Positions 5,731-24,101 are shown, counted from the stretch's first letter. The stretch is DNA of 30,351 nt from a virus (IMGVR_UViG_2663763000_000012), one strand, 5' to 3'. Translations and numbers: made by a program. The notes: generated from the sequence alone by a model not told the origin.

Positions 5731-6831
5731 TTAATTGCTGTTAACCGAAGTGACCAGACTTGCCAGGTATCTGGAAGTAATACGCTGGCGCAGGGTCAGG
5801 TTTTCAAGAGGAGGCACCGGTGTATAGTCGTAGTCGATATACAGTTTTCCGGCCTTGAGGGTTTCCGCATCGTTGGATTCTTCGCTGAACCAGCAGGTCG
5901 CATCCACGATATAGCCGTTTGTTTTCAGCTCACGGAATTTGGCATTGATGCCGTCAACGATGTCGCGAATCAGCGTTGCGGTGATGGGCTTGTCCACCGC
6001 CCACATGTGCGCCTCAGCCATCGTGTCGGCCAGCACCTGCGCGGTGCGGGTGTAGTTTTCAAAGAGGAACAGCGGGTCATCAGAGCAGGTACGGTTACCC
6101 CAGAAGCGGAAACCGTCACGGCGAATCAGCGTAGTGACGCCTGACTCGTTAAGCAGGTCAGCATCGGTGCCGGACTCCTGCAAATCCCAGAATACAGATG
6201 CGCTGATGCCGGTAACACCGTTTACCCCGACGTTGGACAGCGTTTTATGCCAGCCCTGCTCCTGGTCGATTCTGGCACGCAGACCCAGCGCACGGGCGGT
6301 GGCATACGCGGTGGCGGTGGTACTGGTGACCGTATCCCATGCGCTGATATACCCGAAAGCGCGCAGCTTCTGACAGACTGATGCCAGTGCAACAGCCACC
6401 TCTTTGGTATCCAGCCCCGGCACACCGAGAATACGCGGTTTAACACCAGTTACCGACTCCGCCGCCAGCAGGGCTTTCAGTCCGGTGTACTGACCGTTTT
6501 CGTCGGTGGTGCCGATGATATTGGAAACGGTCTGCGCGAGCTTCGTTTCTTCGTCATCGCCGGTGCCCTCTTCCACGCGCACGACAACGGTGACCGGTTT
6601 TGACTGGTCAGCGATGGCCTGCAACGACGCCGCCAGCGTGCCTTTTTTACCGGCCTTTGCAATTGCACTCTGCACATTGGTAATCAGCACCGGTTTATTG
6701 AGGGGGAAGGTTTCCGCATCCGCATCGCTGGCCGTGCAGACCATGCCGACAATGGCAGTGGATACGGTGGAAATGACGCGGGTGCCGTCGTTAATCTCCA
6801 GCACCTGCACGCCGTGATGATAGTCACTCAT
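5731..6831 (-). CDS. FI: Contractile tail sheath protein FI
   Basis: 366 aa ORF, first gene of the FI-FII-E-T-U-D block; somewhat shorter than the P2 FI I remember (about 396 aa). Confidence 0.85.
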   Translation of the reverse strand: MSDYHHGVQVLEINDGTRVISTVSTAIVGMVCTASDADAETFPLNKPVLITNVQSAIAKAGKKGTLAASLQAIADQSKPVTVVVRVEEGTGDDEETKLAQTVSNIIGTTDENGQYTGLKALLAAESVTGVKPRILGVPGLDTKEVAVALASVCQKLRAFGYISAWDTVTSTTATAYATARALGLRARIDQEQGWHKTLSNVGVNGVTGISASVFWDLQESGTDADLLNESGVTTLIRRDGFRFWGNRTCSDDPLFLFENYTRTAQVLADTMAEAHMWAVDKPITATLIRDIVDGINAKFRELKTNGYIVDATCWFSEESNDAETLKAGKLYIDYDYTPVPPLENLTLRQRITSRYLASLVTSVNSN

Positions 6832-6890: not shown

Positions 6891-7484
6891 CTATTTGTCC
6901 CGGTTGGCTAAGGGATGACACAATTTATTCTTTGTCGCTGATGAGGGAAATTTTTTATAGAGCGTGGACAGACCAATATCAAAAATCAGTGCCACGCGTT
7001 GACGTGACTCCCCTGCAGCCAGCAAACGCCCGGCCTGCTCCCACTCACTCGTGGTGAGTTTAGGACGTCTGCCACCAATACGACCTTTGGCTCTGGCCGC
7101 TTCCAGCCCGGCCCGAGTCCGCTCGACAATGAGTTCTCGTTCCATTTCAGCCAGGGCACCCATCACATGAAAGAAAAAACGCCCCATCGGCGTGCTGGTA
7201 TCAATGGCATCCGTCAGGCTGCGAAAATTAATGCCGCGTTCGCGCAGCTCCTCAACCAGAATGACCAGATGCCGCATACTACGCCCCAGCCGGTCCAGCT
7301 TCCAGACTACCAGTGTATCCCCCTCCGATAATGTCCTGAGCAGTTTTTTCAGCCCCGGCCTGTCGGACTTCGTGCCGCTGATTTTATCCTCAAAAATCAG
7401 CTCACATCCTGCGCACTCCAGCGCGTTACGCTGCAATTCCGTATTCTGGTCATTTGTTGACACGCGGACATAGCCAATAAGCAT
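6891..7484 (-). CDS. Serine-recombinase DNA invertase (Gin/Cin/Pin/Hin family)
   Basis: N-terminus MLIGYVRVSTNDQ with the catalytic Ser motif of resolvase/invertase enzymes; C-terminal HTH region with ...STLYKKFP...; 197 aa; ATG at 7482-7484. Sits next to a tail-fibre region with oppositely oriented cassettes. Confidence 0.9.
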   Translation of the reverse strand: MLIGYVRVSTNDQNTELQRNALECAGCELIFEDKISGTKSDRPGLKKLLRTLSEGDTLVVWKLDRLGRSMRHLVILVEELRERGINFRSLTDAIDTSTPMGRFFFHVMGALAEMERELIVERTRAGLEAARAKGRIGGRRPKLTTSEWEQAGRLLAAGESRQRVALIFDIGLSTLYKKFPSSATKNKLCHPLANRDK

Positions 7485-7539
7485 GATGGATCCCCTGAAT
7501 AAAAACCGGGGATGATGCCAGTTAGCCGTAATCTCTGCA

Positions 7540-7565
7540 TTTTCTTAAACGTTGGTTTGGGGGAA
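7540..7565. other. Left crossover site (gix/cix-like 26-bp dyad) of the invertible tail-fibre segment
   Basis: TTTTCTTAAACGTTGGTTTGGGGGAA, imperfect dyad symmetry with AAAC/GTTT-containing half-sites; 20 of 26 positions match the inverted copy at 9345-9370, including a 10-nt identical core TTGGTTTGGG. Confidence 0.55.
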
Positions 7566-7901
7566 TTGGCTCTGGCTGGCGCAACAACCGGCGCTATGTT
7601 GGTGAATGGGTATGTAGCAATTCCATTAATTATTTCTGGCGTTCGGAGACCACTTATTATCCAGTGGGGAGTGGGGCAGTTTGGGGGAAGTCTGGGGGAT
7701 GATGCGGGATATTTAAACAATTTCCCTTTCGCTTTTCCGTCGGCGTGCTACGTGATGGTTGCCAGCCACGTGGGGCATACACCTTCGGGTGCCGGAATAC
7801 TATCTGCTTCCGCAATCACAAAAAGCGGCTTTCGTGGTTTTTCCAGCGTAGCGACTGCCGCAAATCCTGTATCGGGCTGTTATGTTGCTATAGGAGGGTG
7901 A
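7566..7901 (+). other. Promoterless alternative tail-fibre C-terminal cassette (Sv'-like), currently in the non-expressed orientation
   Basis: Open frame on the + strand running straight through the left crossover site (...NVGLGELALAG...), with no credible start of its own. The GLGE junction motif is shared with tail fibre H (...AYLGLGEG...) at the right crossover site. Stop at 7899-7901. Confidence 0.6.
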
Positions 7902-7902
7902 T

Positions 7903-8337
7903 GTGTTTTTTAGTCCATCTTTAAATATTTTTGTGAATCCTGCGCTTAAGGATGACTACATCAATGTAAATTCATGGCCAGATGATGCTGTTGAAGTTGA
8001 TGAGCAGGTGTATATTGAGTTTTCCGGATTACCGCCGAAAGGAAAAATCCGTATCGCTGGGGAAAATGGTTTTCCTGCATGGTCTGAAATTCCACCACCA
8101 ACGCATGAGGAACAGATTGCCGCAGCCGAATTGAAAAAACAGCAATTGATTAATCAGTCCAACGAATATATGAATACCAAGCAATGGCCTGGTAAAGCGG
8201 CTATTGGTCGTCTGAAAGGTGAGGAACTGGCGCAATATAATTTGTGGCTGGATTATCTGGACGCACTGGAACTGGTTGATACCTCCAGTGCTCCAGATAT
8301 TGAATGGCCTACGCCTCCGGCAGTTCAGGCCAGATGA
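7903..8337 (+). CDS. Alternative tail fibre assembly chaperone (U'-like)
   Basis: 144 aa, GTG start at 7903 preceded by AGGAGG (7892-7897); C-terminus ...DTSSAPDIEWPTPP... parallels the C-terminus of the minus-strand chaperone (8309-8902, ...DTSTAPDVIWPELP...). The two genes converge and overlap at their 3' ends. Confidence 0.7.
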   Translation: MFFSPSLNIFVNPALKDDYINVNSWPDDAVEVDEQVYIEFSGLPPKGKIRIAGENGFPAWSEIPPPTHEEQIAAAELKKQQLINQSNEYMNTKQWPGKAAIGRLKGEELAQYNLWLDYLDALELVDTSSAPDIEWPTPPAVQAR

Positions 8338-8902
8338 CATCCGGCGCGGTGCTCGTATCTGTTGCCGTCACCGCGTCAATGTAATCAAGCACGGCGTTAA
8401 GCCGGGTGGTTTCTGCCTGCGTCAGCTTCCGCCCGGCCTGTAATTTCAGCTGAATCAGACTGATGGAAGCCATTGCAGCATCAATCAGTGACTGGCGCTG
8501 TGCTTCTGCCGCTTCTACTGCGGCACCGTGTTGTGCCTCAGTATCTGTCACCCATTTCTCACCATCCCATTTATCATATGGCGTTAACGGTGAAAGCGTG
8601 ACATAACCGTTTTTGATGGCACCGATATAATCCACTGTAACAGCAGCACCATTTTCGATTGAGTAAACAGTCTCATTGCGATGGTCTTCTTCATGGCTCC
8701 ATCCCTTACCTGTAAATACTGCCACTCTTCCCGGAATGTTTTCGCCAGGGTCAATACCAGTGGAACAGGCGGGCATACTTACGCCAGTATTAATATATTC
8801 ATCAGACCAGCCCGTATACTCAGATGTTTCAGCATCATAATAAAAACAACGCATATCGCCCGGCACTGTAGCCAGCCCATTTTCATCAAAAACAGGTTTC
8901 AT
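8309..8902 (-). CDS. G: Tail fibre assembly chaperone (G/U-like), expressed orientation
   Basis: 197 aa, ATG at 8900-8902 overlapping the H stop; SD-like GGTGAGGG upstream; conserved C-terminal DTS.AP motif shared with the alternative copy. Confidence 0.85.
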   Translation of the reverse strand: MKPVFDENGLATVPGDMRCFYYDAETSEYTGWSDEYINTGVSMPACSTGIDPGENIPGRVAVFTGKGWSHEEDHRNETVYSIENGAAVTVDYIGAIKNGYVTLSPLTPYDKWDGEKWVTDTEAQHGAAVEAAEAQRQSLIDAAMASISLIQLKLQAGRKLTQAETTRLNAVLDYIDAVTATDTSTAPDVIWPELPEA

Positions 8903-10185
8903 TATTTAGCCCTCACCAGAAAGTTAAATGCAATATTTCGCGGTCTGACAGCAACAAAATTCACACCATCACCCACAGAGTTACTGGTGAAATTAAATCG
9001 TGAAAATCCTGGCTGATTTCCGGCGATGCCATCATGAAAGTTAATTGCGTGTCCCGCACCTCCGCCTATATTCCCGGCAAACTGAGAAAAGTTTGTAGCT
9101 TCCTGCCAGCTTAATAATTCGCGACCACCATCGGCACCTCGCCCGTCATCCCAGATACGAATGAAATCACCGCGGGCTTCAGGTAATACCAGTGAAGGAA
9201 ACACTTTCGCCAGCACAGGGTAATCAGAGGCAGAAAATTTCGCCCCGTTGAACTTCAAAAACACCATACTGGACCAGCTGTCGATTACAGTATTTGGCAT
9301 TGCAGCGGACGGCCAGAAGAACGGAACGCCAATAGCTGGAGCACCTTCTCCCAAACCAAGGTATGCGAGAAGACCAGCTACATCCTTTCCACTCAAATGA
9401 GTCAGCGTCTCATCCAGTGGCTGCTTACCTGACAGCGCATTGTTAATGGTGGTACTGAATTTCGGGTCATTGTTGATAGCTGCGGCAATTTCTTTCAGTG
9501 TGTCCAGCGTGTCAGGGGCACCGTTAATCAGAGCGGTAATAGCGGCCTGTACAAACGCAGTGGTCGCAATCCGCGTGGTGTTATTTCCTGCGGCAGGCGT
9601 CGGCGCTTTTGGTTCTCCGGTAAATGTCGGATTATGTTTCTGTGCATACTGGGTATGAGGATCCTGTGCGGCAATATGGTTTCTCATCTGGTCATCCACA
9701 TACAGCCTTAACTCCAGGACTTCATCATCCACGTATTTACGGGTCGCCAGTACCACCGACGGGTCGATTTTCAGCGTGATGGCTTCGGTATTCGTGACAA
9801 CCAGAATCATGCGGATAGTCTGGGTACGACCACTGCCTTCCTGCAACTGCGGTTTGTACGTTTCCGGGCAGTTCGCCACCGCAATGAGTACGCCTTCATC
9901 ATCATAAAGCCCAATCTCACGGATCCAGAATCCGCCCTCGTTCTCAGGGATGATTTGCTCCGCAATAATCTGGCTCTGGTTGTTCGGGTCAACACTCAGA
10001 AGATTCAGCGGCGCGATGCGTTTCTGGTTAATAAGTTTTGTCTGTGCCGGGTCTGGTGTCGGCAAGACACCATTTGCATCACCAACGGCCATTTGCGTCA
10101 GATTCAGCTTACTGCCGAGCATCGTCGCGTTAGCCAGCCGTGCCGCGCCCTGATTAGTCAGAATGGCGTAGTATTTCACTGTCAT
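8902..10185 (-). CDS. H: Tail fibre protein H (constant N-terminus fused to the currently selected variable C-terminus)
   Basis: 427 aa; N-terminus MTVKYYAILTNQGAARLANA...MAVGDANG resembles the conserved P2 H / Mu S N-terminal region; start overlaps the I stop (ATGA). The crossover site lies inside the coding sequence at about codon 265. Confidence 0.85.
   Translation of the reverse strand: MTVKYYAILTNQGAARLANATMLGSKLNLTQMAVGDANGVLPTPDPAQTKLINQKRIAPLNLLSVDPNNQSQIIAEQIIPENEGGFWIREIGLYDDEGVLIAVANCPETYKPQLQEGSGRTQTIRMILVVTNTEAITLKIDPSVVLATRKYVDDEVLELRLYVDDQMRNHIAAQDPHTQYAQKHNPTFTGEPKAPTPAAGNNTTRIATTAFVQAAITALINGAPDTLDTLKEIAAAINNDPKFSTTINNALSGKQPLDETLTHLSGKDVAGLLAYLGLGEGAPAIGVPFFWPSAAMPNTVIDSWSSMVFLKFNGAKFSASDYPVLAKVFPSLVLPEARGDFIRIWDDGRGADGGRELLSWQEATNFSQFAGNIGGGAGHAINFHDGIAGNQPGFSRFNFTSNSVGDGVNFVAVRPRNIAFNFLVRAK
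9345..9370. other. Right crossover site (gix/cix-like), inside tail fibre gene H
   Basis: Minus-strand sequence TTCTCGCATACCTTGGTTTGGGAGAA; inverted relative to the left site; half-sites TTCTCGCATACC and TTCTCCCAAACC show dyad symmetry. Confidence 0.55.
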
Positions 10186-22094: not shown

Positions 22095-22113
22095 GTGCTT
22101 TCCCCGCCTCGCC
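22095..22113. other. cos: cos cohesive-end site (19 nt)
   Basis: GTGCTTTCCCCGCCTCGCC is the exact reverse complement of the P2 cohesive-end sequence as I recall it (GGCGAGGCGGGGAAAGCAC); it lies just beyond Q, where cos sits in P2. Confidence 0.8.
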
Positions 22114-22268
22114 CGCCCGCCCGCTTCATGGGTCGGTTTGAATGCAGTTGAATTACAACTACCAAACCAAGCAATCCCTACTATTACGCAGAAAATGCAT
22201 ACTGAAATACCTCGTGCAAATTGATGCAGCTAAGTATGCATAGGTTTTATGCCTCAACGTATACGTTA

Positions 22269-24101
22269 TCAAACAGAGCCCTGTTCAAAAACAGTATCAA
22301 AATATGGTAGGAGAGGATAAGCACACAGAAAGAAAATCAGGATGCATGCATATGTCGTTGTTTCATCGTAACAAGCATTAGTATATAAATTACCATGTGC
22401 TAATTTATGTCTTAAGGTTGCCCCACTCTTTCTGTTAAAAAGAACATCGATAGTCAAAACAAGATTTTTAGAAAAGATACTTTCCAAATCATCTCTGCAT
22501 TTATCTAGAAGCTGAGAAATACTTGTTGACTCCTCTAATCCCTTATCCAAATATCTAGTAGCATCCTTTCCGCTAAGCTCATAATAATAACGAACCATAC
22601 CTTCCATTTGTGGTATTAAAAGATAAGCTGCACTGATGTAATCTCCCTGCCATAATTTGTAAAAGCCCAAATTAAAAATCTCCCTAAACTCCGGCTTGAC
22701 AATTGGACTAGTTGTAACCAATTTAACGAATGTTGACAACGTCAAGCCATGTTCTTGAGAAAGTACATAGCGAGCAGGTTCAAAGACACCGTTTACAAAA
22801 ATCTTATGAGTAATCTCGAAATTTCTTAGATATTGATCAATAACAACATCATCACTCATATATTTTTTATTATCCAACGGCGGGATTGTATATATCTTAC
22901 GCCCACTCTCATCATTAATTTCTGTTCCAACAAAACTAGAGAATAAACTTTTTTCTGATAATCTTAAAACTTGTTCCCTCATGCTTTCAATATTTTCAAT
23001 CGGTGTTTCACTCATTAAAACTTTGAATATATCGGGCAAAGAACGCCCCGTCAGTTTTTTTTCACTTTCAGCAACCAAGTCACTAATATCAATAGAATGG
23101 CTTAAAGTGACATATTCACTCCTTACTTCTTCTCTCAAATTAGCAAGTTGTTCCTTTAAATCTTCTATCTGTTGGCTATCACCACCGTACTGTCTTAATT
23201 CAGAGATAGCTGTTCTTAACCAAGAGATCTTACCCATATTATCAGGTCGTTCTGTTGCAACTTTAATAGTAATATTTGCAGATGCCAGTTTACATCTCTT
23301 GGCACGTTCATACTCACCATTTTTTTCATAAATAACTGCACTTGTCATATAAAGTGATTTTACAGCATCATAATATTTTTTATCTTTATGCTGCTCAGCC
23401 ATCTTCTCAGCATTTTCCGCATACTGCAGATTATACCCATCAAAATCACGCACCATAAACCAAGTCAAATTATTGAAACCTTCAAAGATTAATCTTTCAT
23501 TTTGAATACTATAAAGAGAATGAATGGCATTTTTAATCGCCATGTTTCCTTCTGATTTTCTAGGGTAGACCATTTTATTAATGTGCAAAGCCCTAGCAAT
23601 ATAATCACGAGCAAAAATAAAGCAATTTAAATCACTTTCATCCATGCTTTCGTTTTTTATTATTAGCTTTTCAATTGCTATATTTAGCATTTCAGCATAG
23701 GAATCAATTGCTTTAATTGCCACGTCTTTATTTTTCCGATTATTACACCAAACAACATCATATATTCTTGATAACAAAAATGGATTGGTTATTTTTTGAG
23801 AAACATATAAAAGACAGTCATTCACCTGCTCATCAAAATCTTCAGGCAATATTGATCTTTTATTACCCCAAATCATTTGGGGTTCAAATGATGGAGTGTT
23901 GTTAACAACTTGCAAATTGAAACTATATAGCATACCAAAAAGAGATGCTAATTTTTTCTCTTTGGGGTTTTCTGATGACTCAGCAATCCCATCCAGATAT
24001 TTTTTTATTTTATGTGCATGAAATGTAACTGGTATATGCATAAAAACACTATAATCTAGTGTTTCAAGCTCTTCCCTTGTAAGAACAAAGATATCATTCA
24101 T
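22269..24101 (-). CDS. Large AT-rich cargo protein of unknown function; candidate anti-phage defence/abortive-infection effector with a C-terminal HEPN-like R-x4-H motif
   Basis: Continuous ORF (645 codons from a TTG at 24204-24206; 610 aa from the ATG at 24099-24101, which has an AAGGTG Shine-Dalgarno 7 nt upstream). Strongly AT-rich compared with the flanking prophage. Occupies the tin/old accessory locus between cos and gene A. Motif LRHKLAHG at 22395-22412; no Walker A motif seen. Confidence 0.75.
   Translation of the reverse strand: MNDIFVLTREELETLDYSVFMHIPVTFHAHKIKKYLDGIAESSENPKEKKLASLFGMLYSFNLQVVNNTPSFEPQMIWGNKRSILPEDFDEQVNDCLLYVSQKITNPFLLSRIYDVVWCNNRKNKDVAIKAIDSYAEMLNIAIEKLIIKNESMDESDLNCFIFARDYIARALHINKMVYPRKSEGNMAIKNAIHSLYSIQNERLIFEGFNNLTWFMVRDFDGYNLQYAENAEKMAEQHKDKKYYDAVKSLYMTSAVIYEKNGEYERAKRCKLASANITIKVATERPDNMGKISWLRTAISELRQYGGDSQQIEDLKEQLANLREEVRSEYVTLSHSIDISDLVAESEKKLTGRSLPDIFKVLMSETPIENIESMREQVLRLSEKSLFSSFVGTEINDESGRKIYTIPPLDNKKYMSDDVVIDQYLRNFEITHKIFVNGVFEPARYVLSQEHGLTLSTFVKLVTTSPIVKPEFREIFNLGFYKLWQGDYISAAYLLIPQMEGMVRYYYELSGKDATRYLDKGLEESTSISQLLDKCRDDLESIFSKNLVLTIDVLFNRKSGATLRHKLAHGNLYTNACYDETTTYACILIFFLCAYPLLPYFDTVFEQGSV

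Follow-up and report, generated by a model that had tools for sequence, protein, structure and literature searches.

A probable two-state DNA inversion switch for tail fibre tips in a P2-like prophage of Escherichia coli

Introduction

In a P2-like (Peduovirus) Escherichia coli prophage, a DNA invertase gene adjoins a segment of about 1.8 kb that carries two alternative tail fibre tips on opposite strands. This arrangement raises the question of whether the segment is a switch that still inverts, and what its inversion would change. The locus was analysed within a single stretch of 30,351 nucleotides (IMGVR_UViG_2663763000_000012; hereafter, the window). It is very probably a two-state site-specific DNA inversion switch of the Gin/Cin/Pin/Hin (Din) type: its parts are present, inversion joins the silent tip to the fibre gene in frame, and both orientations occur in nature with the exchange inside the site core.

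Invertible tail fibre switches of this kind have already been described and are common in E. coli. Inversion in P2-like prophages of EPEC was demonstrated by sequencing and PCR, one of the segments being ~1800 bp long (PMC4272514), and long-read data confirmed inversions of COG5301 tail fibres (PMC9881135). The Z/fun hotspot of P2 frequently contains a DNA invertase, together with inversion of the genes beside it (bioRxiv 10.1101/2024.10.15.618418).

Prophage Setting and Invertase Gene

The gene order, V-W-J-I-H-(G)-variable locus-pF-FI-FII-E/E'-T-U-D-ogr, matches the Peduovirus tail module, and the annotation of the nearest genome runs from ogrK to the integrase. The original prediction had placed a serine invertase between FI and the tail fibre genes, at the Z/fun position of P2. 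Both statements are correct: an ORF with Resolvase and HTH_7 domains occupies 6891-7484 on the minus strand, and the G-FI interval of P2 holds fun(Z), which lies between G and pF/FI in the reference genome. The invertase-FI junction was found in 603 of 5426 complete E. coli genomes, and the invertase-pF-FI junction is 97-99% identical in seven phage records (five distinct phages).

The invertase consists of 197 amino acids and begins with MLIGYVRVSTNDQ. The Pfam Resolvase domain covers residues 3-135 (E=3e-52) and HTH_7 covers residues 138-181; the protein matches PHROG 125 'DNA invertase' (E=4e-101) and the Gin structure 3uj3 in the PDB (E=1e-94), while the invertase-specific models of NCBIfam all scored below their own cut-offs. 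Alignment to Gin (3uj3/4m6f) extends over the full length, with the catalytic serine intact and VRVSTNDQ kept. Identities of 87% to e14 PinE and 81% to Mu Gin mark the protein as a close homologue of Gin and Pin and place it among the small serine recombinases of the Gin/Cin/Pin/Hin type, enzymes of ~190 aa with the active-site Ser9/10 in an N-terminal catalytic domain and a C-terminal HTH domain for DNA binding. A promoter for the gene is presumed; nothing resembling a sigma-70 promoter passed a simple scan of the upstream DNA, and the promoter/terminator scan at the gene gave nothing above shuffle expectation except a weak hairpin at 7504-7523 on the minus strand.

Recombination Sites and Candidate Enhancer

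The invertase-proximal (left) site is the 26-bp sequence TTTTCTTAAACGTTGGTTTGGGGGAA at 7540-7565, laid out as TTTTCTTAAACG-TT-GGTTTGGGGGAA with the crossover dinucleotide at 7552-7553. The distal (right) site, TTCTCCCAAACCAAGGTATGCGAGAA (26 bp, 9346-9371), lies within codons 272-280 of the fibre gene H (LLAYLGLGE) and is laid out as TTCTCCCAAACC-AA-GGTATGCGAGAA with the crossover dinucleotide at 9358-9359. Both sites thus show the 12-2-12 layout of gix and pix sites with matching asymmetric central dinucleotides, AA being TT on the opposite strand. Two dyad-symmetric 26-bp sites in inverted orientation, bracketing ~1.8 kb, had been predicted and are present in the sequence. The predicted coordinates hold for the left site, whereas those of the right site (9345-9370) have to be moved by 1 nt; the predicted identity of 20/26 positions between the inverted sites is obtained in the 9346-9371 register but falls to 12/26 in the earlier one. 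Dyad symmetry extends to 14/26 positions in the left site and 20/26 in the right site.

A gix/hix-type consensus, allowing up to three mismatches, has two matches in the 30 kb window, namely these two sites, against an expectation of 0.00 from shuffles; the left site has three mismatches to the consensus used. The pair is also the top-ranked inverted repeat of the region, and its longest perfect common stretch is 10 nt (TTGGTTTGGG), in a 38-nt repeat of 71% identity. Alignment to known sites, which had been proposed as a check, gave close matches: the left site is identical at 24/26 positions to the pinE-proximal pix site of e14 and the right site at 23/26 to the ycfK-internal one, and Mu gixR aligns colinearly with the left site at an equal spacing from the invertase start. 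No third or further crossover site was found in the whole window, even at relaxed pattern stringency. A shufflon with additional sites was considered and ruled out, since these relaxed searches returned just the two sites.

Din systems need a supercoiled substrate and a cis enhancer that carries a pair of Fis sites spaced by ~48 bp and usually lies within the 5' end of the invertase gene. In the window, position and homology point to a candidate Fis-dependent (sis-like) recombinational enhancer at 7400-7463 on the minus strand, inside the 5' end of the invertase gene. It contains two G-N13-C 15-mers, GTGTCAACAAATGAC and GCGCAGGATGTGAGC, 49 bp apart, and ~97 bp separate the centre of the nearer one from that of the left site. 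The candidate region is colinear with the gixR-gin 5' region of Mu, and TCAACAAATGACCAGAA is invariant among the five invertase genes compared. Third codon positions do not set the region apart: when the window is compared with Mu and e14, their identity is no higher in codons 8-29 (the 65-bp region; 0.32) than in the gene as a whole (0.27). The Hin enhancer is similarly 65 bp long, with a Fis site at either end, and lies ~100 bp from a hix site (PMC3798978).

Fibre Gene H and its Two Cassettes

The tail fibre gene H occupies 8902-10185 on the minus strand and encodes 427 amino acids, in agreement with the predicted length. Its constant N-terminal part (residues 1-271; 9372-10185, minus strand) carries the Pfam domain Phage_tail_fib (E=6e-63); it is predicted to be common to both fibre forms and to attach the fibre to the baseplate. 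This part is 99% identical to H of the E. coli B-766 prophage up to GLGE, where the identity ends. The currently expressed variable C-terminus (residues 281-427; 8902-9345, minus strand) has 41% identity to e14 StfE from the GLGE junction onward, and it is followed by a 197-aa chaperone gene (8309-8902, minus strand; Caudo_TAP, E=4.6e-27; PHROG 105), the product of which is 64% identical to e14 TfaE and nearly identical to it in the C-terminal 80 aa. This chaperone gene sits at the position of P2 G.

The silent alternative C-terminus (~111 aa plus stop; 7566-7901, plus strand) contains the Gp53-like_C domain (E=9.6e-13), lacks its own start codon within the segment, and is 39% identical to e14 StfP/YcfK from the common NxGLGE junction onward. 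Its 144-aa chaperone (7903-8337, plus strand, GTG start; Caudo_TAP, E=2.8e-35; PHROG 188) has 58% identity to e14 TfaP over the C-terminal 102 aa. The two chaperone genes converge and overlap by 29 nt. ORFs and Pfam domains therefore agree with the original prediction of two cassettes, each a fibre C-terminus plus chaperone, on opposite strands within the segment.

The same motif, G-L-G-E, is encoded at both junctions, as had been predicted together with an in-frame fusion. In silico inversion at the central dinucleotides yields an in-frame H of 391 aa, in which the silent tip forms residues 281-391. In E. coli ECJXMCRH7, where it has 391 aa, and in B-766, genome annotation lists the fused form as an undisrupted phage tail protein. 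Because the expressed and silent tips come from different families (StfE-like and Gp53-like_C), the two C-termini are likely to differ in receptor specificity.

Proposed Mechanism

Invertase dimers would bind the two 26-bp sites, one just upstream of their own gene and the other inside H, and the two sites would synapse; a Fis-bound enhancer within the 5' end of that gene would most probably take part in the synapse. Cleavage at the central TT dinucleotides, rotation of the DNA halves by 180 degrees and religation would then flip ~1806 bp. In the present orientation, the V-W-J-I-H late operon would give a 427-aa fibre with an StfE-like tip, followed by a TfaE-like chaperone. In the other, the 276 N-terminal residues, with the common GLGE, would be fused to the gp53-like tip as a 391-aa fibre followed by a TfaP-like chaperone. 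A lysogen population containing both orientations would release phage with two receptor specificities, which would amount to host-range bet-hedging.

Both Orientations in E. coli Genomes

The original prediction turned on whether the inverted form exists, and it was found in other E. coli genomes; the evidence for both orientations is comparative, coming from genomes other than the source strain. The window orientation matches E. coli strain 2013C-4974 as a single piece with 99.8% identity, and the in silico inverted sequence gives single-piece matches to ECJXMCRH7 (99.1%), A134_1EC (98.3%) and four ETEC strains (96.9%). When genomes covering at least 80% of the query form were counted, 30 E. 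coli genomes had the window form and 29 the inverted form. Alignment of the junctions places a reciprocal exchange between positions 12 and 23 of the sites, inside the TTGGTTTGGG core. Every flanking and cassette gene has the same protein accession in the prophage of E. coli W as in that of B-766, and the segment is 100% identical over 1839 nt and oppositely oriented; this identity is claimed for the two prophages and not for the strains themselves.

These orientation differences might be old events in a switch that was once active and no longer flips in this copy, owing to a weakened left site, an unexpressed invertase or decay of the prophage. Of the two sites, the left one is more degenerate, with its three mismatches and 14/26 dyad symmetry, the scan upstream of the invertase found no promoter-like site, and the tail sheath gene FI of the prophage has a 30-aa in-frame deletion (90 nt). 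This deletion may prevent virion production, and the switch would then lack any phage phenotype in this prophage. However, the invertase has an intact ORF with 98% identity to its counterpart in pro483, an isolated phage, and ECJXMCRH7, which has the opposite orientation at 99.1% identity, shares the same left site (TTTTCTTAAACGTT...). Moreover, the flip is the sole difference between the W and B-766 prophages and the orientations are near 1:1 among near relatives, a pattern of ongoing switching rather than of ancient, fixed events. Loss of switching in this copy is therefore improbable, and a working two-state switch is preferred.

Another proposal is that the invertase mainly serves the host or other elements in trans, such as pix/gix-type segments of other prophages in the same genome, the local segment being secondary. 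Gin, Cin, Pin and Hin cross-complement one another, the sites in the window are nearly identical to the pix sites of e14, and most E. coli genomes have several matching places (median 2, up to 11-12). Fels-2 Fin is mentioned as acting on the H segment in a passage of PMC4272514 that cites its ref 43. Nevertheless, the invertase gene and the pair of sites that belongs to it are direct neighbours, the spacing and the cassette design are canonical, and no feature of the window calls for action in trans. Such action would supplement the local switch and not replace it, so that hardly any weight can be given to this proposal.

Lastly, although inverted repeats can in principle mislead assemblers or allow homologous recombination, it is scarcely credible that the polymorphism reflects RecA-dependent exchange or assembly errors at repeats, since a perfect match of 10 nt, set in a 38-nt repeat of 71% identity, is not long enough to serve RecA or to mislead the assembly of complete genomes. 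The exchange also maps precisely to the core of a canonical invertase site that adjoins the invertase gene, and PCR-verified inversion in P2-like prophages has been published (PMC4272514).

A site-specific switch has consequences for annotation. RefSeq relatives list a 129-aa 'gp53-like domain-containing protein' and call H as a split 'pseudogene'; both annotations would be artefacts of the switch, and the orientation of the 1.8-kb segment should be treated as a population variable rather than as a strain difference. Biologically, the locus would be a further case of host-range bet-hedging in a temperate phage and opens no new question; hedging by inversion has been understood since Mu, P1 and e14.

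Comparison with Known Inversion Systems

The original prediction described the locus as Mu G-segment logic in a P2 backbone. The logic applies, but by sequence the closest classical relative is the Pin/P-segment of e14 rather than the G-segment, because the S and S' cassettes of Mu are unrelated while the cassettes and sites of e14 are homologous. Mu was rejected as the closest relative when neither S nor S' showed significant similarity to either cassette. In e14 of E. coli K-12 (pinE, stfE-tfaE, stfP(ycfK)-tfaP), as in the window, an invertase gene is followed by a site, two convergent cassettes of C-terminus plus chaperone, and a site inside the fibre gene; the sites have central TT, the junction peptide is GLGE, and all four cassette genes have homologs (StfE 41%, TfaE 64%, StfP 39%, TfaP 58%). 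On the other hand, e14 is a defective lambdoid element whereas the window has the backbone of a complete P2-type myovirus prophage, and the constant fibre part in the window is, unlike that of e14, a P2 H-type N-terminus (Phage_tail_fib).

In Mu Gin/G-segment and P1 Cin/C-segment, Sc is fused by the same logic to either Sv or Sv', and U or U' accompanies it. Colinearity between Mu and the window runs from the site through the spacer into the 5' end of the invertase gene, including the gin region that holds the sis enhancer, and the sites share the 26-bp, 12-2-12 format. The segment is 1.8 kb in the window compared with 3 kb in Mu, and the central dinucleotide is TT compared with GA/TC. Salmonella Hin is a member of the same group of invertases; its sites are also 26 bp long, and its enhancer lies within the recombinase gene. 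However, the H-segment carries a promoter controlling flagellin genes, whereas a coding-sequence cassette is flipped in the window, where the invertase gene lies, unlike hin, outside the invertible segment.

P2-like loci on record, in EPEC E2348/69 prophages (PMC4272514), NC_041848 (the Peduovirus 'Escherichia phage P2' from O157:H43 T22), pro483, 500465-2, S164 and the E. coli W prophage, occupy the same place between the fibre genes and FI and have the same annotated set of a DNA invertase, two fibre assembly proteins and a promoterless C-terminus. The cassette pair is the sole difference; for example, the silent cassette of E. coli W differs and is 33 nt longer. Multi-site, shufflon-like systems, such as p15B Min and the three-site EPEC locus, have at least three crossover sites that allow more than two arrangements, and some EPEC P2-like loci have three sites and four states, whereas the window has just two sites and two states.

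The invertase ORF in the window continues into the pF promoter region of P2 and is therefore 13 aa longer than its e14 counterpart, and its last ~12 codons (6891-6928) overlap the equivalent of the P2 pF activator-binding site (6900-6928). There is a very slim chance that activation of the FI-D tail operon by Ogr is disturbed by transcription or translation of the invertase, or that the influence runs the other way; if so, the overlap would be more than an insertion scar, and fibre switching would be coupled to late gene expression.

Organization of the invertible segment

Two 26-bp recombination sites in inverted orientation bracket a segment of ~1806 bp that contains two convergent cassettes. 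In the minus-strand cassette, the C-terminal 147 residues of the tail fibre H (427 aa; 8902-10185) are followed by a chaperone with a Caudo_TAP domain (8309-8902). In the plus-strand cassette, a Gp53-like_C tail-fibre C-terminus without a start (7566-7901) precedes a second Caudo_TAP chaperone (7903-8337), and the 3' ends of the two chaperone genes share 29 nt (8309-8337). All the components proposed for this ~1.8-kb segment in the original prediction, an expressed H C-terminus and a promoterless alternative, each with its chaperone, were found. The two C-termini belong to different families, from which differing host ranges of the two fibres would be expected.

The left site, proximal to the invertase gene, lies at 7540-7565 with the central dinucleotide TT, and the right, distal site within H lies at 9346-9371 with AA; the cores match once one site is reverse-complemented. 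The sites are identical at 20 of 26 positions, as proposed, although the right one had been placed one base too far left, at 9345-9370, where the register yields 12/26. Scanning of the 30-kb window with a gix/hix-style consensus (at most three mismatches, with shuffled controls) matched these two sites only, where shuffles expect none, and a looser core pattern revealed no further credible site in the window. They also rank first among the inverted repeats of the region. The distal site corresponds to H codons 272-280 (LLAYLGLGE), with the crossover TT in codon 276, and the proximal site, read in the frame of the silent plus-strand cassette, encodes ..NVGLGE, so that the predicted G-L-G-E motif occurs at both junctions. 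Inversion of 7552-9359 in silico yields an unbroken 391-aa H (...LLAYLGLGELALAGATTG...CYVAIGG), in which the alternative C-terminus is fused in frame as anticipated.

Both orientations among genomes

The window orientation matches the nearest relative, the prophage of E. coli 2013C-4974, as one colinear piece (99.8%). The sequence inverted in silico likewise gives one colinear match to E. coli ECJXMCRH7 (99.1%), and matches A134_1EC (98.3%) and four ETEC strains (96.9%). Among genomes at 80% coverage or more, 30 carry the window form and 29 the inverted form. Alignment of the four junctions shows reciprocal products with the exchange point within TTGGTTTGGG: the left junction of ECJXMCRH7 combines the outer left half-site of the window with its inner right half-site, and the other junction is the converse. 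E. coli W (NC_017664) and B-766 (CP118014) share the same protein accessions for the sheath, the invertase, both chaperones, I and J, and over 1839 nt their segments are 100% identical yet lie in opposite orientations. These matches, the reciprocal junctions and the flipped W/B-766 segment demonstrate that the inverted form, looked for across genomes, is present without other sequence change. Apart from the one-base coordinate slip, the observation is confirmed, and its interpretation as a switch is supported.

The switch has left artefacts in RefSeq. One is a separate 129-aa "gp53-like domain-containing protein" annotated for the promoterless cassette (window 7512-7901, plus strand; 20813-21202 in L002, a locus from a RefSeq relative), with an ATG start that falls beyond the segment. 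Where a genome has this orientation, H is cut into two "incomplete" pseudogene pieces (22194-22727 and 23088-23477 in L002; 3736-4269 and 4630-5019 in L004, a second such locus), whereas the window ORF is intact.

The two chaperones are 36% identical over their C-terminal ~70 residues (…DTS.APD+.WP..P), the end of Tfa proteins that is conserved and binds the fibre. Between the stop codon of the silent C-terminus and the GTG that starts its chaperone lies a 9-nt stretch, TGTGTTTTT (7902-7910). The 2013C-4974 prophage, otherwise 99.9% identical, lacks this stretch, and its annotated chaperone starts later (136 aa). ECJXMCRH7 apparently retains it, since a 3601-nt query matched there as one colinear piece of unchanged length.

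Invertase and backbone junction

As predicted, a DNA invertase ORF (6891-7484, minus strand; 197 aa, starting MLIGYVRVSTNDQ...) is situated between the tail sheath gene FI (5731-6831, minus strand) and the tail-fibre genes. It combines a catalytic domain of the Resolvase family with an HTH_7 domain for DNA binding. Its alignment with the Mu Gin structures 3uj3 and 4m6f (E=1e-94) spans the entire protein and shows the catalytic serine motif preserved; identity is 87% to e14 PinE and 81% to Gin.

P2 identity resumes at ~6911, and the TTGTG upstream of that point is also common to both; therefore the ORF, which stops at 6891, runs across the sequence equivalent to the pF activator-binding site (6900-6928), making the protein 13 aa longer than PinE. 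Its last ~12 codons (..KLCHPLANRDK*; 6891-6928, minus strand) are P2 backbone DNA overlapping this counterpart of the annotated site, which places the right-hand boundary of the imported module inside it. In P2 itself, fun(Z) lies between G and the pF promoter/FI, so the module occupies the Z/fun position, as proposed.

Of 5426 complete E. coli genomes, 603 contain the exact invertase-pF-FI junction, as do seven phage records that correspond to five different phages: pro483, S164, a Peduovirus from O157:H43 T22, ECO95 1-6-1 and Salmonella phage MET_P1_103_31. Where these phage records are annotated, the genes are already named DNA invertase, tail fibre assembly protein (twice) and tail protein.

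Relationship to the e14 and Mu systems

The P-region of e14 has the same design as the window module. Its two pix sites are identical to the window sites at 23/26 and 24/26 positions and share the TT core. One e14 cassette encodes StfE and TfaE (41% and 64% identity to the window counterparts), the other StfP/YcfK and TfaP (39% and 58%), and in each the fibre similarity begins at the common GLGE. The original prediction invoked the logic of the Mu G segment in a P2 backbone. The Mu fibre proteins S and S' are unrelated to either window cassette, although site, spacer and invertase 5' end are colinear with Mu gixR-gin. Because sites and cassettes are homologous to those of e14, the system is more precisely described as a module of the Pin/P-segment type set in a P2-like genome.

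Homology suggests that it acts as Din invertases do: invertase dimers would bind the two sites, which would synapse together with a Fis-bound enhancer; the enzyme would then cut the central dinucleotide with a 2-bp stagger, and 180-degree subunit rotation would precede religation. In the Hin system the enhancer spans 65 bp, bears a Fis site at either end and lies ~100 bp from a hix site (PMC3798978). The homologous stretch in the window, 7400-7463, is a candidate enhancer and contains two G-N13-C 15-mers 49 bp apart, the nearer ~97 bp from the left-site centre. Third-codon-position identity is 0.32 in this stretch versus 0.27 overall, a difference that does not set it apart as constrained at the DNA level.

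In EPEC, inversions within P2-like prophages have been detected, quantified and PCR-verified, among them one locus with two states and another with three sites and a ~1800 bp inversion; they were ascribed to Hin-homologous invertases that switch tail fibres (Goldberg et al., 2014; PMC4272514). Long-read-confirmed programmed inversions occur in COG5301 tail-fibre genes of prophages, with tail protein I and tail-fibre assembly protein as enriched neighbours (Milman et al., 2023; PMC9881135), and the P2 Z/fun hotspot often encodes a DNA invertase with adjacent genes inverted alongside (2024 preprint, 10.1101/2024.10.15.618418). Systems of this kind are already known, and the arrangement seen here is itself common; the annotation is correct and tidy, and no discovery.

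Other features of the prophage

The window comprises a complete P2-like prophage that shares 99.9% identity with the one in 2013C-4974. FI encodes 366 aa, compared with 396 aa in P2 and the nearest relative: an in-frame deletion of exactly 90 nt relative to 2013C-4974, flanked by the 8-nt direct repeat CCCATGCG and joined at 6336-6343, removes 30 aa (AWGCKTISEVKAYRQNFSQRELMVIWPDFL). The loss extends to part of the Phage_sheath_1 domain and may render the prophage defective. At the P2 old/tin cargo hotspot lies a large gene (22269-24101, minus strand; the ORF reaches 24206 with a TTG start), annotated as DUF7380 in the nearest genome. Its match in PADLOC is the phage-defence candidate PDC-S39 (E=1.8e-83), and NCBIfam gave no hit. 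Between the portal gene and this PDC-S39 gene, a 4-nt intergenic insertion (CGCC, 22110-22113) distinguishes the window from 2013C-4974.
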